Source of the DNA: Candidatus Forterrea multitransposorum CG_2015-17_Forterrea_25_41
GTDB lineage: Archaea; Iainarchaeota; Iainarchaeia; Iainarchaeales; CSSED10-239
Length of the DNA: 64,000 nt
NCBI GenBank assembly: GCA_009392915.1
Contig: CP045477.1
Coordinates: forward strand, 96,001-160,000
Direction of reading: 5' to 3'
The notes below the pieces were generated by a model, which was given only the letters and a program-made list of their open reading frames with translations, had not been told where the DNA came from and ran no database searches. Both the position numbers and the translations under genes were made by a program. This document shows positions 14,034-59,905 of the stretch, piece after piece. Positions within the stretch are counted from its first letter, which is position 1. Every line of letters begins with the position of its first letter.

Positions 14034-14261
14034 ATGGCTAAAAAGAAAGGAGCTAATTCAGTTAAGAAAGGTAAGAAAGCTCATAAGAAAACTGTAAGAG
14101 TTAAAGTGAATAAATTTTATGAAGTTTCTGGCGCAAGTGTTACAAGAAAAGGAAAAGATTGTCCTAAATGTGGTACTGGTGTAAAGATGGGTTCTCACAA
14201 AACAAAAGATGGTCAAGTAAGATATGCTTGCGGTAAATGTGGGACAACAGTTTGGGAATAG
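14034..14261 (+). CDS. rps27ae: 30S ribosomal protein S27ae
   Basis: 75 aa; CPKCG...CGKCG zinc ribbon; the S24e-S27ae pair is conserved in archaea; SD AAGGTGA. Confidence 0.8.
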   Translation: MAKKKGANSVKKGKKAHKKTVRVKVNKFYEVSGASVTRKGKDCPKCGTGVKMGSHKTKDGQVRYACGKCGTTVWE

Positions 14262-46443: not shown

Positions 46444-46518
46444 GGGAGTGTAGCTTAGTCTGGTTGGAGCACTCGACTGATAATCGAGAGGCCGCAGGTT
46501 CGAATCCTGCCATTCCCA
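46444..46518 (+). tRNA. tRNA-Ile (anticodon GAU)
   Basis: GGGAGTG-TA-GCTT-AGTCTGGTTG-GAGC-A-CTCGA-CTGATAA-TCGAG-AGGCC-GCAGG-TTCGAAT-CCTGC-CATTCCC-A; no CCA encoded. Confidence 0.85.
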
Positions 46519-46559
46519 CTTTCTATTTTTATATAGATTTTAAAAAAAGAGGATAATTT

Positions 46560-46733
46560 ATGAGAAATATACAAGATGTATTAAAATCAGATTCCGATTA
46601 TGATTTTTCTGAATTTGATTATGATGAAGATCCTAAAAAGAAAAAACAAGACCAATTAGATTCACAAGAAGAAGAAATTCGTGTTGATGATGAATGGGAT
46701 GATGAGTCAGATGATAGTGATTCTGACTATTAA
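46560..46733 (+). CDS. small highly acidic protein (57 aa)
   Basis: not in the ORF track (under 60 aa); ATG 8 nt after AGAGGA; sequence MRNIQDVLKSDSDYDFSEFDYDEDPKKKKQDQLDSQEEEIRVDDEWDDESDDSDSDY; sits directly upstream of the histone-fold gene. Confidence 0.35.
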   Translation: MRNIQDVLKSDSDYDFSEFDYDEDPKKKKQDQLDSQEEEIRVDDEWDDESDDSDSDY

Positions 46734-49450: not shown

Positions 49451-49525
49451 GGAAGTGTAGCTTAGTCTGGTTAGAGCATTGGTCTTATACACCAAAGGTC
49501 GCAGGTTCGAATCCTGCCATTTCCA
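49451..49525 (+). tRNA. tRNA-Ile (anticodon UAU)
   Basis: GGAAGTG-TA-GCTT-AGTCTGGTTA-GAGC-A-TTGGT-CTTATAC-ACCAA-AGGTC-GCAGG-TTCGAAT-CCTGC-CATTTCC-A; the anticodon loop reads C-U-U-A-U-A-C; near-identical backbone to tRNA-Ile(GAU). Confidence 0.75.
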
Positions 49526-49582
49526 CTTTTTTTTAAAAATAAAGCTTTATAAATCTAATTAACTACTATATATTAGATAATT

Positions 49583-52415: not shown

Positions 52416-52434
52416 TTCCTTTATAAATATTTTG
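52416..52434 (+). promoter_or_regulatory. candidate promoter TTCCTTTATAAATATTTTG upstream of ileS
   Basis: 19-nt element identical to 55744-55762; contains the TATA-like TTTATAAATA; followed at +24 by the shared AATATTTATG box. Confidence 0.4.
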
Positions 52435-52602
52435 TATCTATAAAATATTTATGACTTACAATAATACTTTAAGTTTTTATAAAGATAACTTAATTTCTAT
52501 AATTATAAGTATTATTATATATTGATAGGCAAAGATTAACCTTCATTCTAATTTTAATCTTTTGCCAAAATTTTAAGCTTTAAAGGTAGGTGGGCAAAAA
52601 TT

Positions 52603-55443
52603 ATGTTTTCAAATCAAAATGAAAAAGAAATAAAAGAGTTTTGGGAAAAAAATAATATTCCTAAAAAAGTAAGAGAAAAAGAGTCTGATAAACATTATTA
52701 TTTTATAGACGGACCTCCATATGCAACAGGTTCTATTCATTTAGGAACTGCAATGAACAGGATCTTAAAAGATATTCTTTATAGGTTTAAAAGACAAGAA
52801 GGTTTTAAGGTTTTAGACATTCCTGGTTTTGATACTCATGGTGTGCCAATAGAACGTAAGGTGCAAAAAAAATATGATTTAAAATCAAAAGAAGATATTG
52901 AAGCTTTTGGTATTGAAAAATTTTCAAAAGAATGTCATGCATTTGCAACTAAACACATCTCTGAAATGTCAAAAGATATTTATGATTTAGGACAATGGAT
53001 GGATTGGGAAAATCCATATAGAACTTTAGATCAAACCTATATGCAATCTGCTTGGTGGACTTTTAAAAAAGCTTTTGATAAAGGTCTTTTATTTCATGAC
53101 AAATATCCTATCCATGTCTGTCCTGATTGTGAAACTTCAGTTTCTTTTAATGAAATTGAATATCAAGATTTAACTGATCTTTCAATTTTTGTTTCCTTAC
53201 AATCAAAAGAAGATTCTTCTCTTTTCTTTGTTATTTGGACAACAACTCCATGGACTCTACCTGCAAACATGGCAATCATGGTTCACCCTAAATATACATA
53301 TGTTGAGCTTATCTCAAACAATAAAAAATATATTGTTGCAAAAGATTTATCTGAAAAATTAATAAAAGAATTTAATTTTGAAAACTATACTTTAGGTAAA
53401 GAATATTTAGGAGAAGAACTTGTAGGTAAAGAATATCTTCCTGTTCTAGGAGAATGGTTAAATCTTCCTGAAGATTATACAAAAAATGCATATAAAATAA
53501 TCTCTTCAGCAAGACATGTAAACCTAGAAGACGGTTCTGGTTTAGTTCATTGTGCTCCAGGACATGGTAAAGAAGATTATCAAGTTGGAAGAGAATTTAA
53601 TATTCCTATATTTTCTCCGGTTACAATGTCAGGTGAGTATGATGATTCTGTTTCTTTTGGAAAAGGAAAAAAAGTTAAAGAACTTGATTTAGATATAATG
53701 AAATATTTACATGAAAAAGAATGTATCTTAGCTAAAAGAAAAGTAAAACATAGTTACCCTACATGTTGGAGATGTCATAATCCTTTAATAATGGTATCTT
53801 TACCTCAGTGGTTTTTAAGAATTGAAGATTTAAAACCAAGACTTGTAGAACTTAATGAAAGTGAAGTTTCTTGGCATCCTTCTTGGGGAAAAGATAGATT
53901 TTCAAACTGGCTTAAAAATTTATCTGATTGGCCAATTTCAAGAGCAAGATATTGGGGAACTCCTGTTCCTATTTGGAAATGTGATAACTGTGAAAAAATA
54001 CATGTCTTTGAGTCTTTAGAAGATTTAAAGAAAAAAGCTCCTGAAGTAGATTTAAATATGGATATTCATAAACCATTTATTGACAAAATAGAAATTACTT
54101 GTGATTGTGGAACAAAGGTGAAAAGAATTCCAGAAGTATTTGATGTTTGGTTTGATTCTGGTGTTGCATCATGGGCATCTTTAGGTTATCCTTTCAAAAA
54201 AGAATTATTTGATAAATATTGGCCAGCAGATGCTAATTTAGAAGGTCCTGATCAAATAAGAGGTTGGTGGAATTCTCAAATAATTGCTTCTGTAATTGCT
54301 TTTGATAAAGTTCCATTTAAACAAATTTCTATGCATGGTATGGTTCTTGCTGGAGATAAAAGAAAGCTTTCTAAATCTGAAGGAAATGATATTCCTTTAA
54401 TTGAAAGATTTTCACAAACTTCAATTGATTACTATAGATATTATTTTGCAAAAGAATTTTCAGGAGAAGACATTGTTTTAGATTCTAAAAAATTTGATGA
54501 AGTTAGAAGAACTTTAAATCTTTTAGAAAATCTTTATAATTTCATTTCTCTTTATGATGAAAAACAAACATTTGTAACTTCTTTAGATGTTTCAAAAGAA
54601 ACTTTACTTGTTGAAGATAAATGGATTCTTTCAAGATTTAATAATCTTTTAAAAAATAGTTATGCAAACTTTTCAACAACTAACTATTCAAAAGTTATAA
54701 ATGATTTTGAAAAATTTTTGCTTGAAGATTTTAGTAGAATATATGTTAAACTTTTAAGAAAAAGAAAAGATGAAAATCATGTTCTTTCATATGTCTTTTC
54801 CTCAAGTTTAATATTGATCTCACCAATAGTTCCTCATTTTACAGAATTCATGTATCAAAAGTTTTCTGTAAAAGAAAAAGAATCTGTGCATTTCTACCAT
54901 AATCCTTTAATCAATGAAAGTTTAATTGATTTAGATCTTGAAAAGAACTTTGACCTTTCTCAAGAAGTTGTAAAAACAGCTCTTTCTTTAAGAGAGGACT
55001 TAAAGAAAAGATTAAGATGGATCTTACCTGAAATGCATGTTGTTTTAAAAGACTTTGAAAAAATATCTATCTTTAAGGAAATTATAGAAGATATGGCAAA
55101 TATTGAAAATGTAAGTTTTTCAAATAATGCTCCTGATAACATGCCTTCAAAAGAAGTTTTAAAAGATGTTTTTGTATACATTAATGAAAACATTGATTCT
55201 TCTTATAAAGAAGTTTGGGAAGTATCAGAGCTTACAAGGCTTATACAGTCTGAGAGAAAGAAACAAAAGTTAAATCCAAATGATAAAGTTTCTTTGAAGA
55301 TATCTTGTAGTGAAAAAGATTTCCTTGTAAAAAATAAACCTAAAATTGAAGATGCAACAAACACTATTCTTGATATCTTGGACGATTTAAGTGAAGACAA
55401 TAAACAAAAGTTAATAGAGAGAGAAGTTTCTTTCTCTTTTTAA
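52603..55443 (+). CDS. ileS: isoleucyl-tRNA synthetase (compact, 946 aa)
   Basis: PPYATGSIHLGTAMN (HIGH region), GFDTHGVPIE, KLSKSEGN (KMSKS); CP1 editing and zinc-binding CxxC pairs; IleRS-like rather than ValRS by the xDTHGxPIE motif. Confidence 0.7.
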   Translation: MFSNQNEKEIKEFWEKNNIPKKVREKESDKHYYFIDGPPYATGSIHLGTAMNRILKDILYRFKRQEGFKVLDIPGFDTHGVPIERKVQKKYDLKSKEDIEAFGIEKFSKECHAFATKHISEMSKDIYDLGQWMDWENPYRTLDQTYMQSAWWTFKKAFDKGLLFHDKYPIHVCPDCETSVSFNEIEYQDLTDLSIFVSLQSKEDSSLFFVIWTTTPWTLPANMAIMVHPKYTYVELISNNKKYIVAKDLSEKLIKEFNFENYTLGKEYLGEELVGKEYLPVLGEWLNLPEDYTKNAYKIISSARHVNLEDGSGLVHCAPGHGKEDYQVGREFNIPIFSPVTMSGEYDDSVSFGKGKKVKELDLDIMKYLHEKECILAKRKVKHSYPTCWRCHNPLIMVSLPQWFLRIEDLKPRLVELNESEVSWHPSWGKDRFSNWLKNLSDWPISRARYWGTPVPIWKCDNCEKIHVFESLEDLKKKAPEVDLNMDIHKPFIDKIEITCDCGTKVKRIPEVFDVWFDSGVASWASLGYPFKKELFDKYWPADANLEGPDQIRGWWNSQIIASVIAFDKVPFKQISMHGMVLAGDKRKLSKSEGNDIPLIERFSQTSIDYYRYYFAKEFSGEDIVLDSKKFDEVRRTLNLLENLYNFISLYDEKQTFVTSLDVSKETLLVEDKWILSRFNNLLKNSYANFSTTNYSKVINDFEKFLLEDFSRIYVKLLRKRKDENHVLSYVFSSSLILISPIVPHFTEFMYQKFSVKEKESVHFYHNPLINESLIDLDLEKNFDLSQEVVKTALSLREDLKKRLRWILPEMHVVLKDFEKISIFKEIIEDMANIENVSFSNNAPDNMPSKEVLKDVFVYINENIDSSYKEVWEVSELTRLIQSERKKQKLNPNDKVSLKISCSEKDFLVKNKPKIEDATNTILDILDDLSEDNKQKLIEREVSFSF

Positions 55444-55461
55444 TTTTTTAAGTGATATTTT

Positions 55462-55647
55462 ATGAAATTAATTATAGATTCTAAATTAGATATATCTTTA
55501 AAAGAATGGTCTGAAGGAAAAAAATCTTTAGGAGATGTTTCTAAAGAAAATAATTTATCTATATGTCAAACAATGGAAGAAGCTAAAAAAAGAGGTCTTT
55601 CTTCAAGCATATCTTTAGAAGATATAAAAGATGATTTCAACTTATAA
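55462..55647 (+). CDS. small hypothetical protein
   Basis: 61 aa ORF directly after ileS; no SD; weak. Confidence 0.2.
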   Translation: MKLIIDSKLDISLKEWSEGKKSLGDVSKENNLSICQTMEEAKKRGLSSSISLEDIKDDFNL

Positions 55648-55743: not shown

Positions 55744-55762
55744 TTCCTTTATAAATATTTTG
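55744..55762 (+). promoter_or_regulatory. candidate promoter TTCCTTTATAAATATTTTG upstream of asnS
   Basis: identical 19-mer to 52416-52434, with the same downstream AATATTTATG (+24) and AATACTTT (+42) boxes. Confidence 0.4.
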
Positions 55763-55982
55763 CTTCTTATTAATATTTATGTATTTCAAAATACTTTTAT
55801 CAAAAACAAGATTTTTACAAATCTACTTATTTTCTGTAGTTAACTTTAATCTCCTTTAGAGGGAGAGAATTTAATATTTATCGGTTTATATAATATTTAT
55901 AGTACTTTATTAAAATAAAGTCTAAACATATTTATAGTAATTTTTAAAAAAAATATATTTATAAAAAAGGAGTTAATAATTT

Positions 55983-57287
55983 ATGGAAAAAAAATATTTA
56001 TCAATAAAAGAAGTTTTAGAAAAGAAAGAAGGAGAGGTATCTTTAAGAGGATGGGTACACAGGTTTAGAGACCAAAAGACAACAATCTTTATAACCTTAA
56101 GAGATGTTACAGGGGTAATACAACTTGTGTGTGATCAAGATAAAGTATCTCCAGAGCTTTTTGAAAAAATAAAACAAACAACTATAGAATCATCAATAGT
56201 TGTTTCTGGAACTGTAAGAAAAGAAGAAAGATCTCCTCAAGGTTATGAAATTGATATAAAAGATTATGAGATTGCAGGTCTTGCAGAAACTTATCCAATA
56301 TCAAAAGATTTTTCTGAAGAATTTCTTTTAGATGTAAGACACTTATGGTTAAGATCAAGAAAAATGCAAGCAATCTTAAAAATAAGATCAACTGTCTTTA
56401 GAGCTATTCATGATTATTTTAGAAGTCAAGATTATTATGAATATCAATCTCCAGTTCTTCAGTCAGTTCAATGTGAAGGAGGATCAAGTTTATTTAAGGT
56501 TGATTACTTTGAAAAGAAAGGTGTCTTTTTAGCACAGACATGGCAATTGTATGCAGAGCCAGCTATCTTTTCTTTAGAAAGAATATATACAATCTCTCCA
56601 TCTTTTAGAGCGGAAAAGTCAAAGACAACAAGACATTTAGCTGAATATTGGCATGCAGAGATGGAAGGAGCTTGGGTTTCTTTTGAAGAGTTACAAGAGC
56701 ATGCAGAAGGTTTAATAAAAAAAGTAATCTCTGATGTTTTAAAACACCATAGAGATGATCTTGAAACTTTAAAGAGAGATGTTAAAGTTTTAGAAACTGC
56801 AATTTCAAAACCTTTTGTAAAAATGACATACACCGAAGCTTTAGAGATTTTAAAAAAAGAGCATGACATGCATGTTGAATGGGGAAAAGACCTAAGAACT
56901 GTTGAAGAGGATCTTTTATCTAAAATGTATGATACTTTTATTATTATTACAAGATATCCAAAAGAAGTAAAAGCTTTTTATATGAAAGAAGATCCACAAG
57001 ACCCTAGAGTAGTTTTAGGTTTTGATTGTATCGGTCCTGAAGGTTATGGTGAGATTATAGGTGCAAGTGAAAGAGAGGATGATATTAAAAAAATAGTTGA
57101 AAGACTTGAAAAAGACGGAGAAGATGTCTCACAATATGATTTCTATCTTGACACTAGAAAATATGGTTCTGTCCCTCATTCTGGTTTTGGAATGGGTGTT
57201 GAAAGAATAATCTCTTATATCATAAAAGCTGATACAATAAAGGATGCTATTGCTTTCCCTAGAACAATGGTAAGGTATAGACCTTAA
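55983..57287 (+). CDS. asnS: asparaginyl-tRNA synthetase (class IIb)
   Basis: 434 aa; N-terminal OB anticodon-binding domain; FRAEKSKTTRHLAEYWHAEMEGAW (motif 2), GFGMGVERI (motif 3); the C-terminal FPRT matches AsnRS rather than AspRS (FPRD). Confidence 0.6.
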   Translation: MEKKYLSIKEVLEKKEGEVSLRGWVHRFRDQKTTIFITLRDVTGVIQLVCDQDKVSPELFEKIKQTTIESSIVVSGTVRKEERSPQGYEIDIKDYEIAGLAETYPISKDFSEEFLLDVRHLWLRSRKMQAILKIRSTVFRAIHDYFRSQDYYEYQSPVLQSVQCEGGSSLFKVDYFEKKGVFLAQTWQLYAEPAIFSLERIYTISPSFRAEKSKTTRHLAEYWHAEMEGAWVSFEELQEHAEGLIKKVISDVLKHHRDDLETLKRDVKVLETAISKPFVKMTYTEALEILKKEHDMHVEWGKDLRTVEEDLLSKMYDTFIIITRYPKEVKAFYMKEDPQDPRVVLGFDCIGPEGYGEIIGASEREDDIKKIVERLEKDGEDVSQYDFYLDTRKYGSVPHSGFGMGVERIISYIIKADTIKDAIAFPRTMVRYRP

Positions 57288-57595: not shown

Positions 57596-58099
57596 ATGTT
57601 AAATAATAAAGTTAATGCTGTAATTGACTCTTCATTTTGGATAAACTTGAGTAGAGTTGATCTTACAAAATATTTATTAGATTATTTTACTATTTATTCT
57701 ACCATAAAAGTAAAAGAAGAACTTTTTGATTTTTACGAAAGAAGAGGTTATTTTTCAAAAGATTCTTATCTTTTTAAGTTATATTTAGAAGCAGATTTTA
57801 TTATTTTAAAAGACCTTAAAGAAATTACTTTAAAAATAAAGCAAGAATTGTCAAAAGATTCTGGAGAGTTATATTCTGCTGCTCTTTTAAAGGAAATTGG
57901 AGGTGTTTTTTTAACAGATGATAAGGGGGCACTTAATTTTTGCAAAAATAATAATCTTTTTGCAATTACTTCTGTTTATTTAATAGTTAGACTTTATAAG
58001 GATAATTTAATATCAAAAGAAAAAGCTAAATTTTCAATTATGCGATTAAAAGGAAAAATAAGTAATATACATATACAATCTGCTTTAAAGGATTTATAG
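57596..58099 (+). CDS. PIN-like nuclease domain protein (DUF3368-like toxin candidate)
   Basis: 167 aa; N-terminal AVIDSSFWINL acidic PIN start; internal TDDKGAL. Confidence 0.4.
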   Translation: MLNNKVNAVIDSSFWINLSRVDLTKYLLDYFTIYSTIKVKEELFDFYERRGYFSKDSYLFKLYLEADFIILKDLKEITLKIKQELSKDSGELYSAALLKEIGGVFLTDDKGALNFCKNNNLFAITSVYLIVRLYKDNLISKEKAKFSIMRLKGKISNIHIQSALKDL

Positions 58100-58119: not shown

Positions 58120-58476
58120 ATGGTTAAAAAAGATTATAAATTGAAATCTTATAGATTATCTGATAGTTCCTTAAAATTAATATATAATGTTTCTAAAGAA
58201 AAAGATTTGAGTGAATCTGAAGCTTTAAGAATGTTAGTTGACAAAGGGCTTTATGAATATAAGTTAGAGTCAGCAATAAAAACATATTATGATAAAAATT
58301 TAGATTTAACTGCTGGAGCAAAACTTGCTGGTATTTCCAAAAGAGAGTTTATGGAAGAACTTTCAAGAAAAGGGGAAGGTATTAATCTTTCAAAAGAAGA
58401 TTATGATTATTCTAAAAAATCTTTTGAAAAATTATTTGGAAAAACAAAAAAGAAAACTACTCAAAAGCCCAAGTAG
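58120..58476 (+). CDS. UPF0175-like HTH antitoxin candidate
   Basis: 118 aa; LDLTAGAKLAGISKREFMEELSRKG resembles the UPF0175 HTH (ISLGKAAELAGMSRWEF...); SD AAGGAGG. Confidence 0.45.
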   Translation: MVKKDYKLKSYRLSDSSLKLIYNVSKEKDLSESEALRMLVDKGLYEYKLESAIKTYYDKNLDLTAGAKLAGISKREFMEELSRKGEGINLSKEDYDYSKKSFEKLFGKTKKKTTQKPK

Positions 58477-59905
58477 TTTTTTCTTTAGAATCAAAAAGAA
58501 TAACTCCTTTTTTCTTAAGGTTTATTCTTATGATGTCTGCTTCTTCCCATTTCTTAGAATCTCTTAATTCTTGTCTTTTTAAAATTAATTTTTCAATTTC
58601 TTCAACAGGCATTTTATTTTTTGCTTTATTTTCACTATTACTTTCAAAATTTAAAACTTTAAAAACAAGATTTACTTTTTTCAAAAATTCTAAAATCTGT
58701 GATGCTTCTTCTCTGGTTAATTTTTCTTGATCCATTAGTTTGTTTGTTTCTTTTACAAGGAAAAAGATTTGCGCCCATGCATTTGGTGTGTTAAGATCAT
58801 CATCCATGGCTTTTTCAAAATTAAAGATTGATGTTTCAATAATTTCTTTTGCATAAAACATTTCTTTTTCTTGTTTAACTTCTTGAAGTCTTCTTATATA
58901 GTTGTTTAGGTTTTGTAAAGTTTTTTTAGCATCTAAAATAGATTGTTCTGTATAGTTTTGTGGTTTTCTATAATGTCCTGTTGAGAAAACATATCTAAGT
59001 TCTTCAGCTGTATTTTTCTTTAAAAAGTCTTCAATGGTTATAAAGTTTCCTAAGGATTTTCCCATTTTCTTTCCATCAATTGAAAGCATTGCTGTATGTA
59101 CCCAGTAGTTTACCATCTTATGATTTAAACAACCAAAGTTTTGTGCAATTTCATTTTCATGATGAGGGAAAACATGTTCTATTCCTCCGCCATGAATATC
59201 AAAATTATCTCCAAGATATTTATTACCCATAACTGAACATTCCATGTGCCAACCAGGATAGCCAAGACCCCATGGAGAATTCCATTTCAAGATATGCTCT
59301 GATTTTGCTTTTATCCAAACTGCAAAGTCTGCTGGGTTTTTCTTTTCTTCATCATTTTTAAATCTTGTATCTTTTAAAAGATCTTCAATCTTTCTGTTTG
59401 AAAAAGAACCATATTCTGAATATTTTGAAACATCAAAATAAATTCCATTTTTAGTTTCATATGCAAAACCATTTTCAAGAAGTTTTTTAACCCATTCTAT
59501 TATTTCTGGAACATGTGCTGAGGCTTGTGGTTCTATGTTTGGTCTTGATATTTTTAAATCATCAAAAGCTTTCCACATTCTATGTGAATATTTATAAGCA
59601 AGTTCCATTGGGTGTACTTTTCTTTCTTTTGCTCTTTTTGTCATTTTGTCTTCTCCAGAATCTCCTAAGCCATCATCTGTTAGATGACCAACATCTGTAA
59701 TGTTTCTAACATAGAAAATCTGGTAGTTATGAAAAATTTTAAAATAATTGATTAAAAGATCATAGTAGATATATGACATTGCATGCCCTAAATGAACATC
59801 ATCATAAACAGTTACTCCACACACATATATTTTAAGTAAACCTTTTTCAACAGGTTTAAAGGCTTCTTTTTTTCTTGTAAGTGTGTTGTAGAGTTTTATT
59901 GTCAT
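58457..59905 (-). CDS. cysS: cysteinyl-tRNA synthetase
   Basis: 482 aa; CGVTVYDDVHLGHA (HIGH), zinc-binding Cys, KMGKSLGN (KMSKS); SD GGTGA. Confidence 0.85.
   Translation of the reverse strand: MTIKLYNTLTRKKEAFKPVEKGLLKIYVCGVTVYDDVHLGHAMSYIYYDLLINYFKIFHNYQIFYVRNITDVGHLTDDGLGDSGEDKMTKRAKERKVHPMELAYKYSHRMWKAFDDLKISRPNIEPQASAHVPEIIEWVKKLLENGFAYETKNGIYFDVSKYSEYGSFSNRKIEDLLKDTRFKNDEEKKNPADFAVWIKAKSEHILKWNSPWGLGYPGWHMECSVMGNKYLGDNFDIHGGGIEHVFPHHENEIAQNFGCLNHKMVNYWVHTAMLSIDGKKMGKSLGNFITIEDFLKKNTAEELRYVFSTGHYRKPQNYTEQSILDAKKTLQNLNNYIRRLQEVKQEKEMFYAKEIIETSIFNFEKAMDDDLNTPNAWAQIFFLVKETNKLMDQEKLTREEASQILEFLKKVNLVFKVLNFESNSENKAKNKMPVEEIEKLILKRQELRDSKKWEEADIIRINLKKKGVILFDSKEKTTWAFE

Follow-up and report, generated by a model that had tools for sequence, protein, structure and literature searches.

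Why do two aminoacyl-tRNA synthetase genes of one genome share the same promoter module, placed well upstream of the genes themselves, and what lies in the leader between promoter and gene? The question arises in a 64,000-nucleotide stretch of contig CP045477.1 (positions 96,001 to 160,000; called the window below and numbered from its first letter). The genes are ileS, for isoleucine--tRNA ligase (946 amino acids; 52603-55443, + strand; TIGR00392, 763.7 bits against a cutoff of 621), and asnS, for asparagine--tRNA ligase (434 amino acids; 55983-57287, + strand; NF003037, 476.6 bits against a cutoff of 414, with AspRS models scoring under their cutoffs). A sequence-only reading of the locus had proposed the same kind of upstream module on both genes, which is borne out. 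It had also treated the ileS leader as untranslated RNA, and so missed that most of the leader is a small upstream open reading frame (uORF) that is predicted to be translated. Comparison with relatives strongly supports the element as a candidate archaeal, leaderless, cognate-codon leader-peptide attenuator on the two synthetase genes, and ribosome-mediated attenuation sensing charged cognate tRNA is probably how it acts on ileS and asnS.

The organism is a DPANN archaeon. The G+C content of the window is ~24%, and archaeal markers are encoded in it (a thermosome subunit, GatD/GatE, aIF5B, and a class III [archaeal pilin] signal peptide). The closest named relatives of its IleRS are labelled "Candidatus ainarchaeum sp.," "Candidatus Diapherotrites archaeon," or "archaeon," and an identical IleRS occurs in GCA_009994275.1 and on long metagenomic contigs, including Ga0100381_1000002 of JGI 3300007985. 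Because the organism is archaeal, its promoters are to be read as TATA boxes and not as sigma-70 promoters.

A duplicated promoter module and its predicted leaderless start

The 19-mer TTCCTTTATAAATATTTTG, claimed to be duplicated, is exact at 52416-52434 in the ileS leader and at 55744-55762 in the asnS leader (+ strand). Each copy holds a TATA box, TTTATAAA (52420-52427 and 55748-55755), followed directly by a conserved ATTTTG (within 52420-52434 and 55748-55762). The next shared element, AATATTTATG, keeps the same register in both copies at an offset of +28 (52444 and 55772) instead of the proposed +24. A further one, AATACTTT, had been placed in register at +42; it lies at +47 and +46 (52463 and 55790) and is thus one base off. 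The promoter does stand far from the ileS start, as had been proposed, with a leader of ~152 nucleotides (nt) from the predicted transcription start to the ileS ATG in place of the earlier ~145 nt.

Within the window alone, the duplication is of modest significance (at ≤3 mismatches, 3 matches against 0.7 expected; 4/100 shuffles did as well), and the two modules share 42/62 positions in register. Across 1.45 Mb (the window plus the fetched loci), the 15-nt core TTTAWAAAYATTTTG has 20 matches, 19 of which are ileS or asnS promoters in the window's strains and in three more species (L001/L095, L087, and L085). TTCC is unconstrained, reading TTAC in a strain with a 97% identical IleRS. ATTTTG was not found at other TATA promoters in the window; it may be a promoter element common to the two genes or the binding site of a factor.

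CTTTATAAATA is the general TATA consensus of this genome and stands upstream of many genes. Many annotated gene starts in the window, that of cysS included, consist of a TATA 8-mer, then 21-25 nt, and then ATG, which indicates that leaderless mRNAs are common in this genome. In both copies of the module, the conserved AATATTTATG sets an ATG 23 nt past the TATA box. From this spacing, the transcript is predicted to be leaderless and to start with a small ORF, and we read AATATTTATG as the initiator region and start codon of that predicted ORF. In 18/19 leaders, the TATA 8-mer starts between -28 and -35 (mode, -31) relative to the uORF ATG. The two synthetase uORFs are the only intergenic ORFs of 20-30 codons in the 64 kb that fit this TATA-spacing rule, and only 17% of the short ATG ORFs of the window reach 23 codons.

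A small ORF with an isoleucine tail precedes ileS

The predicted ileS uORF (52451-52525, + strand, TGA stop included) starts 23 nt after the TATA box and encodes MTYNNTLSFYKDNLISIIISIIIY. Its distal part is a cluster of seven Ile codons among nine (I15 to I23; 52493-52519, + strand), which we propose as the sensing codons. Relatives were gathered from a genome scan, a protein search with ten contig look-ups of its matches, and a metagenome scan, and ileS loci were identified by position and length. The resulting comparison set comprises 10 loci, namely, the window, L001, L002, and L084 to L090, the nine others having IleRS identities of 61-81%. All 10 share one order of elements: a TATA-preceded uORF whose tail is rich in Ile, a hairpin, a Shine-Dalgarno (SD) sequence, and ileS. 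The encoded peptides, each ending at a stop codon, are MVLYNYKQSLIKFLISIIITIIY (L001), MANNYIDGLFKKIIYIIIGIIYL (L084), MFKNNTFGLTKIPICLFISIIIQ (L085), MNKYFNFFKVYVSNFNYLIFLNINIIII (L086), MTIYNQISKNKFIYNLLISIIISIIIK (L087), MFKNIFKNLNLFNKNYFFVIIVLVSIIFIII (L002), MFNTNLNQFLKKYIISINIVLNSIIIGIIII (L088), MKQTNKSNLFLNKISVSTITSISIISIIII (L089), and MNKLNLKIKELSLNNKNNIYSSISISIIIQ (L090). In L094 and L096 (the 97% identity strain), the peptide is unchanged from that of the window. The metagenome scan with IleRS added only the 97% strain, further copies of L001 and L003, and a relative at 67% identity that is truncated at the N terminus; its other matches were at ~30-35%.

The N-terminal halves of these uORFs cannot be aligned and their lengths vary (23-31 codons across loci), with the frame, the Ile tail, and the position of the stop being kept. 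Of the last 10 codons in the 10 loci, 61% are Ile codons; the figure is 11% for the remainder of the peptides and 8% for the asnS uORFs. Between close relatives, the Ile codons differ at the third position only (ATT/ATA/ATC), the one indel is a whole codon in frame, and the Ser residues among the Ile residues of the tail use five codons (TCT, TCC, TCA, AGC, and AGT). These three features argue for constraint on codons and not merely on an A+T-rich DNA motif. The last Ile codon is ATA in 9/10 loci, and ATA accounts for 48% of the tail Ile codons versus 31% in the ileS coding sequence. From TATA box to ileS ATG, the leader is identical (186/186) to that of a strain with 96.3% identity in the ileS coding sequence (p = 0.0009). 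A programmed frameshift at the Ile run, which the spacing of the hairpin might have signaled, was considered and rejected, as neither alternative frame is consistently open.

The same bases could be read as tandem promoters, the Ile cluster (TTTCTATAATTATAAG, 52495-52510) or a TATA-like stretch in the hairpin being the real ileS promoter, the hairpin a 5'-end stabilizer, and the upstream ORF incidental or a separate tiny transcript. Consistent with this, TTCTATAAT is conserved at the nucleotide level in 7/10 leaders, 20-28 nt before the first base of the hairpin, and in the distant loci L047/L128 and L145 (see below), ileS seemingly has its own TATA box at -31, downstream of the uORF. Left unexplained are the ATG fixed 23 nt after a consensus TATA box, the frame that, in ten genomes, runs uninterrupted for 23-31 codons and ends shortly ahead of the hairpin, and the synonymous-only Ile changes, in-frame indel, and varied Ser codons. 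Nor are the asnS leaders explained, as their conserved AACTTTAAT is not TATA-like. TATA-like 8-mers arise by chance throughout at 24% G+C; those that can be seen by eye between hairpin and SD are expected at this composition. We therefore hold tandem promoters to be very unlikely.

Immediately upstream of the ileS leader, L089 and L090 carry a tRNA gene with anticodon TAT (1614-1688 and 1652-1726, respectively). In L089, the region before this tRNA-Ile and the leader (1-1561) holds a reverse-transcriptase-domain gene (RVT_1), a HicB-like antitoxin gene, and an OB-fold Ssb-like gene; with such neighbors, synteny upstream of the leader is not conserved, whereas the leader is.

A small ORF ending in asparagine codons precedes asnS

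The asnS leader holds a counterpart, a predicted leaderless uORF (55779-55859, + strand, TAG stop included) encoding MYFKILLSKTRFLQIYLFSVVNFNLL, whose ATG likewise lies 23 nt after the TATA box. Its proposed sensing codons are Asn-Phe-Asn (AAC TTT AAT; 55842-55850, + strand). A TATA-preceded asnS uORF ending in Asn-Phe-Asn, two further residues, and a stop is present in 9/10 loci with an available upstream region; L086 has the variant Ile-Phe-Asn, and L001 the synonymous AAT at an Asn codon. Asn accounts for 36% of the last 5 codons in asnS uORFs versus 2% in ileS uORFs. The last two sense codons vary (LL, FP, CP, GP, GL, and GQ) together with the sequence just past the stop; in every case, the result is a short, G+C-rich hairpin whose loop holds the stop codon.

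The sequence-only reading took the shared module as a sign that the two synthetase genes are co-regulated. The cognate codon content of the uORFs (an Ile cluster at one gene, Asn-Phe-Asn at the other) points elsewhere; since the codons match the downstream synthetase, each gene would sense its own amino acid.

Specificity of the cognate tails

Among 852 control ATG ORFs of 15-40 codons, taken in all frames of the ten loci, III near the end occurred in 10 and an NxNxx end directly before the stop in 8, nearly all of which are the real uORFs; the background frequency of such tails is ~0.1-0.3%. An unbiased scan of ~1.4 Mb was made for intergenic, TATA-preceded ORFs of 8-40 codons, ≤260 nt upstream of an ORF of ≥150 amino acids, with at least three identical residues among the last six codons. 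It returned 26 matches, 16 of them Ile-tailed (15 distinct), and 14 of these lay upstream of ileS. Two of the remaining matches were asnS uORFs. Of the features by which leader-peptide attenuators are recognized, a conserved same-strand short ORF in the leader was thus found at 10 ileS and 9 asnS loci, and the enrichment in cognate codons is reciprocally specific, with Ile before ileS and Asn before asnS.

These counts bear on two simpler accounts. The small ORFs might be hydrophobic micro-proteins, or a chance by-product of A+T-rich DNA, unrelated to synthetase control; the tails are indeed hydrophobic, and codons for Ile, Asn, Lys, and Phe occur often at a G+C content of 24%. A micro-protein would sit poorly with peptides of 23-31 residues that have unconserved N-terminal halves and keep only the cognate tail and the stop position, and chance with the rarity of such tails in the background and with a position fixed directly upstream of the matching synthetase gene in every case. 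Of the explanations considered, we give this one the least credence. Alternatively, the uORFs may act generically, through repression, translational coupling, or reinitiation, and tune the genes to overall translation capacity instead of to one amino acid. A short ORF followed by an SD-led gene, with a hairpin that abuts the terminating ribosome, is what such an arrangement would look like. Generic action does not predict cognate-specific tails at both genes and across lineages, nor that 14/15 distinct Ile-tailed uORFs should stand upstream of ileS, and the spacer of 66-156 nt between uORF stop and gene start looks, in our judgment, long for termination-reinitiation. We consider it unlikely.

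Similar uORFs also occur at greater distance. Among ~150 IleRS loci at ~30-35% identity, a TATA-preceded, Ile-tailed uORF stands just before ileS in 4, compared with 3 of ~690 other genes (p = 0.02). The four loci, with IleRS identities of ~31-33%, are L047, from a Woesearchaeota genome (3902-3943, MKSLSQDITSIII), L128 (2383-2421, MILSSQIIISII), L145 (2366-2416, MAIRNSEILSIIAIII, with an 8-bp hairpin 2 nt after the stop), and L146 (2392-2424, MTVNLSEIII). The wiring in L047/L128 and L145, where ileS appears to have a TATA box of its own, may differ.

Conserved hairpins follow the small ORFs

Directly after the ileS uORF stop lies a hairpin (52528-52566, + strand) formed by the inverted repeat GGCAAAGATTAA (52528-52539) and TTAATCTTTTGCC (52554-52566). 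The repeat is as previously described, with 12 bp, one bulge, -10.3 kcal/mol, and z = -2.8. Its conservation in relatives had been named as a check, and a hairpin does occur at the same place in 10/10 loci, beginning 3-9 nt from the first base of the stop (z = -0.9 to -5.3). The stems comprise four unrelated sequences across the loci: that of the window (GGCAAAGATTAA/TTAATCTTTTGCC), GCTTTTCTTT/AAAGAAAAGC, GTAGCCATAATTCTT/AAGAATTATTTGCTAC, and TAGTGG..AATCAA/TTGATT..CCACTA. Within the first family, two double compensatory changes were read from single-sequence folds (G-C to A-U in L084 and C-G to U-A in L086). Fisher combination of the ileS hairpins gives p = 1e-9, or 2.6e-5 with one locus per stem family. 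RNAalifold gave no pairs for six leaders aligned with MAFFT, owing to misalignment of the 3' arms. When a covariance model was built from the first family, it picked up the orthologous hairpins of L084, L001, and L086 together with their reverse strands; elsewhere in these loci it found no second strong copy and a few weak matches (E = 0.06 to 0.5).

Counted from the first base of the last Ile codon, the base of the stem is 11-12 nt away in 8/10 loci (11 nt in the window). This spacing is steady even though 0-2 residues follow the last Ile and the stop-to-stem distance ranges from 3 to 9 nt. By standard footprint geometry, the hairpin would stand at the leading edge of a ribosome with the last Ile codon in its A site.

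In the asnS leader, the UAG stop of the uORF is the loop of a short, G+C-rich hairpin (55850-55866, + strand; -7.3 kcal/mol). The same geometry was found in 9/9 loci with at least four different stems (CUCCUU/AGGGAG, UUCCCC/GGGGAA, GCCCU/AGGGU, and GGCC/GGCC). At every ileS and asnS locus, then, a conserved structure is placed where the position of a ribosome can affect it.

The loops of the ileS hairpins (5-16 nt) share no conserved sequence and contain no GAU or UAU triplet. tRNA mimicry of the thrS type was accordingly rejected, as the loops lack a conserved anticodon-like sequence. Rfam searches of the window and six relatives returned only tRNAs at gathering score, and the leaders gave no match even at E ≤ 1. 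This excludes a T-box (RF00230) in either leader of the window and in the six related loci.

A third arm at the ileS start

The sequence-only reading further described a third related copy of the repeat, and GGCAAAAATTAT is indeed present at 52593-52604 (+ strand), overlapping the ileS ATG at 52603. It proposed that the middle arm pairs either upstream, with the ribosome-binding site left free, or with this copy, with that site and the start hidden, the untranslated leader being a three-arm RNA switch set by a trans factor (tRNA-Ile or IleRS). In the window, where all arms are present, such pairing of the 3' arm with the SD/start region is strong (-8.1 kcal/mol, compared with -3.1 for the null mean; empirical p = 0.006), and with the 5' arm masked, the start regions of the window and L084 are predicted to be less accessible. 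Complementarity is also above background in L090 and L086. Across the 10 loci, it reaches p of ~0.04 or lower in three and 0.09 in a fourth (combined p = 0.007). The alternative pairing therefore stands for the window and fails as the conserved core of the element, being found in 3-4/10 loci, with the third arm not conserved in the other 6-7. Loop and stem sequences differ by lineage, leaving no conserved ligand or protein site, and Rfam offers no match of any kind. The three-arm model also takes no account of the conserved, predicted leaderless ORF in the first half of the leader. As a general account we find it improbable; a switch at the ribosome-binding site may nonetheless operate in this strain.

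Pairings of a comparable kind can be seen in some asnS leaders. In the window, L001, and L087, the 5' arm CUCCUU of the asnS hairpin (55851-55856) is the exact complement of the SD AAGGAG (55967-55972), ~110 nt downstream, and some leaders have a minimum-energy fold in which AACUUU, from the Asn-Phe codons, is paired with GGAGUU. The other asnS lineages showed neither of these pairings.

Proposed mechanism and its output

In the attenuation reading, ileS and asnS would be second cistrons of a transcript that begins at the uORF ATG without a 5' untranslated region, from a consensus archaeal TATA promoter. Both genes have a strong SD of their own, which fits downstream cistrons. That of ileS is GGTAGGTG (52585-52592, + strand), with AGGTAGGTG, GGAG, or GGGGG in relatives; that of asnS is AAGGAG (55967-55972, + strand), both read from the sequence. 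A ribosome loading at the 5' end would read the sensing codons and, when charged tRNA-Ile or tRNA-Asn is scarce, wait on them. At ileS, the waiting ribosome would stand just short of the hairpin, which would form and stay folded. With charged tRNA plentiful, the ribosome would reach the stop, where it would abut or open the base of the ileS hairpin or would already have melted that of asnS. The two ribosome states would lead to different synthetase expression, pausing giving more synthetase.

The sensor part of this scheme is well supported by the conserved cognate codons and their placement. We infer uORF translation, pausing, the direction of the response, and the output step. For uORF translation, the support consists of the leaderless-type TATA-to-ATG spacing; that pausing would raise expression follows from homeostasis logic and bacterial precedents.

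For the output, we rank premature termination, or more generally transcript fate, slightly above SD access. The first possibility, that transcripts terminate early or survive differentially in the spacer of 70-150 nt between uORF and gene, is put forward tentatively. A terminator scan did not pick up the leader hairpins. T-runs in the leaders of the window reach 4 or 5 at most, compared with T5-T10 at gene ends, and the lack of such gene-end runs in the leaders is consistent with read-through into the synthetase gene. T-runs of the leaders as terminators in themselves were rejected, as their positions vary and their frequency, by a rough estimate, seems not above that expected from composition. 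Runs of T4-T6 lie inside the loop or 3' arm of 8/10 ileS hairpins, a weak enrichment that the asnS hairpins do not show. The archaeal termination factor aCPSF1/FttA recognizes U-tracts (PMC8716108), and a hairpin that hides a U-tract from it by folding would fit. The second possibility, control of SD/start access through a freed 3' arm, is doubtful and perhaps confined to some lineages. Other outputs, such as protection of the mRNA by a stalled ribosome, rank third.

Several points weigh against attenuation as proposed here. The transcription starts of ileS and asnS, the translation of the uORFs, and the response to amino acids are predictions. The ileS uORF is absent from L003/L098 and L091 to L093 (57-59% IleRS identity), which have short intergenic regions, and L002 has no asnS uORF. 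The asnS leaders contain only 2-3 Asn codons, and Asn codons are common in an A+T-rich genome. The Ile codons ATA and ATT resemble a TATA box, and the cluster could therefore serve as an internal promoter as well. The geometry also differs between the genes, as waiting on the Ile codons spares the ileS hairpin and waiting on the second Asn codon would melt that of asnS. Concerning the output, no conserved U-tract follows the ileS stem (T4-T5 occurs within 7 nt in ~6/10 leaders and is absent in four), and no conserved antiterminator/terminator pair was found in the leaders, which have one conserved hairpin only. To our knowledge, hairpin-dependent termination is not established for archaeal RNA polymerase. 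When a ribosome footprint was masked at the first Ile codon, the last Ile codon, or the stop in partition-function folding, SD/start accessibility did not change consistently across loci.

Relation to known leader-based control

Leader-peptide transcription attenuators are well known in bacteria and include trpL, hisL, and ilvL as well as pheM, which precedes pheST, a synthetase operon. The ileS and asnS leaders resemble them in having a short leader ORF enriched in the relevant codons, followed by RNA structure. The closest system in principle is pheM/pheST, a direct precedent for a synthetase under a cognate-codon leader peptide. The bacterial attenuators are SD led, carry their sensing codons in the first arm of alternative hairpins, and act through a hairpin and U-tract terminator. 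The ORFs described here, in contrast, are archaeal and predicted to be leaderless, and the ileS sensing codons lie 11-12 nt before a single conserved hairpin. The alternative hairpins and intrinsic terminator of the classical trp, his, and pheST type were looked for in these leaders and not found.

In Firmicutes and Actinobacteria, ileS and other synthetase genes are usually controlled by T-box riboswitches, which bind uncharged tRNA directly. These also use leader RNA before a synthetase gene to report cognate tRNA charging, but they need no translation. In the tna operon, TnaC acts as a nascent peptide that senses free tryptophan, and it blocks Rho. The likeness lies in a ribosome that is halted at the last codons of a leader ORF and controls transcript fate in a long spacer; the archaeal counterpart of the Rho step would be FttA/aCPSF1. 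In the translational attenuation of ermC, a drug-dependent stall occurs within the first hairpin arm, and the stalled ribosome refolds downstream hairpins to free or hide the SD. This is the output that the sequence-only reading proposed, although the SD-hiding arm is not conserved in the ileS leaders.

The closest system in architecture is that of the mycobacterial leaderless polycysteine small ORFs described by Canestrari et al., in which ribosome stalling relieves attenuation of the downstream gene and consecutive codons for the same amino acid in a leaderless first cistron serve as the sensor (10.1101/834739). That system is bacterial, controls cysteine metabolism genes, and relies on pairing of the Cys-codon tract with the downstream SD (10.1101/834739). 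In our loci, neither the Ile tract nor the Asn tract shows conserved pairing with the SD, and the naked leaders show neither consistent sequestration of the start nor its consistent release on masking of the tract.

According to a 2021 paper, no attenuation or antitermination is known in archaea (PMC8448881). Our literature searches found no report of archaeal leader-peptide control, and none later than that statement. The element would thus be a new archaeal, leaderless variant of leader-peptide attenuation.

Neighboring features

The third synthetase gene of the window, cysS (58457-59905, - strand), is leaderless, with a TATA box 23 nt before its ATG. It has no mini-ORF upstream, so the device is not on every synthetase gene. 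Two tRNA-Ile genes are present, with anticodon TAT at 49451-49526 and anticodon GAT at 46444-46519, and AUA is decoded by the tRNA-Ile(UAU) gene. Two more leaderless small ORFs, each preceded by a TATA box and 24 nt, lie at 46560-46733 and 14034-14261, below the 90-amino-acid cutoff of the ORF list; the product of one has 57 amino acids and is very acidic, and that of the other has 75 and is lysine rich.

At its 3' end (55416-55452), ileS carries a 9-bp hairpin followed by TTTTTAATTTTTT, with the stop codon within the T-run. Behind it, in the ileS frame and after two stops (TAA and TGA), is an ORF of 61 codons (55462-55647) that is absent from L001 and gave no family match; at this site, other relatives have unrelated-looking ORFs of 68-89 codons. 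After asnS, two small genes (57596-58099 and 58120-58476) match DUF3368 (PF11848) and UPF0175 (PF03683) and look like a toxin-antitoxin-type pair.

Implications

On balance, we favor the view that the ileS and asnS leaders are working archaeal ribosome-mediated attenuators that read cognate tRNA charging to set synthetase production. The Ile-tailed uORFs before ileS in Woesearchaeota-like and other DPANN contigs suggest that the device may not be confined to one clade. If so, it would belong to a wider, unrecognized layer of archaeal gene control, possibly reaching more synthetase genes, and its output step may depart from the bacterial hairpin-terminator logic. Archaea couple transcription with translation and often use leaderless mRNAs, which makes the ribosome as a sensor in archaea a testable question. 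The leaders provide concrete constructs for it, with start codon, Ile or Asn codons, and hairpin all defined by comparison, that would be suitable for a tractable archaeon or for cell-free work. For DPANN archaea, whose genomes are reduced and which live on imported amino acids, the leaders also suggest a way in which synthetase levels may be adjusted without dedicated regulators.

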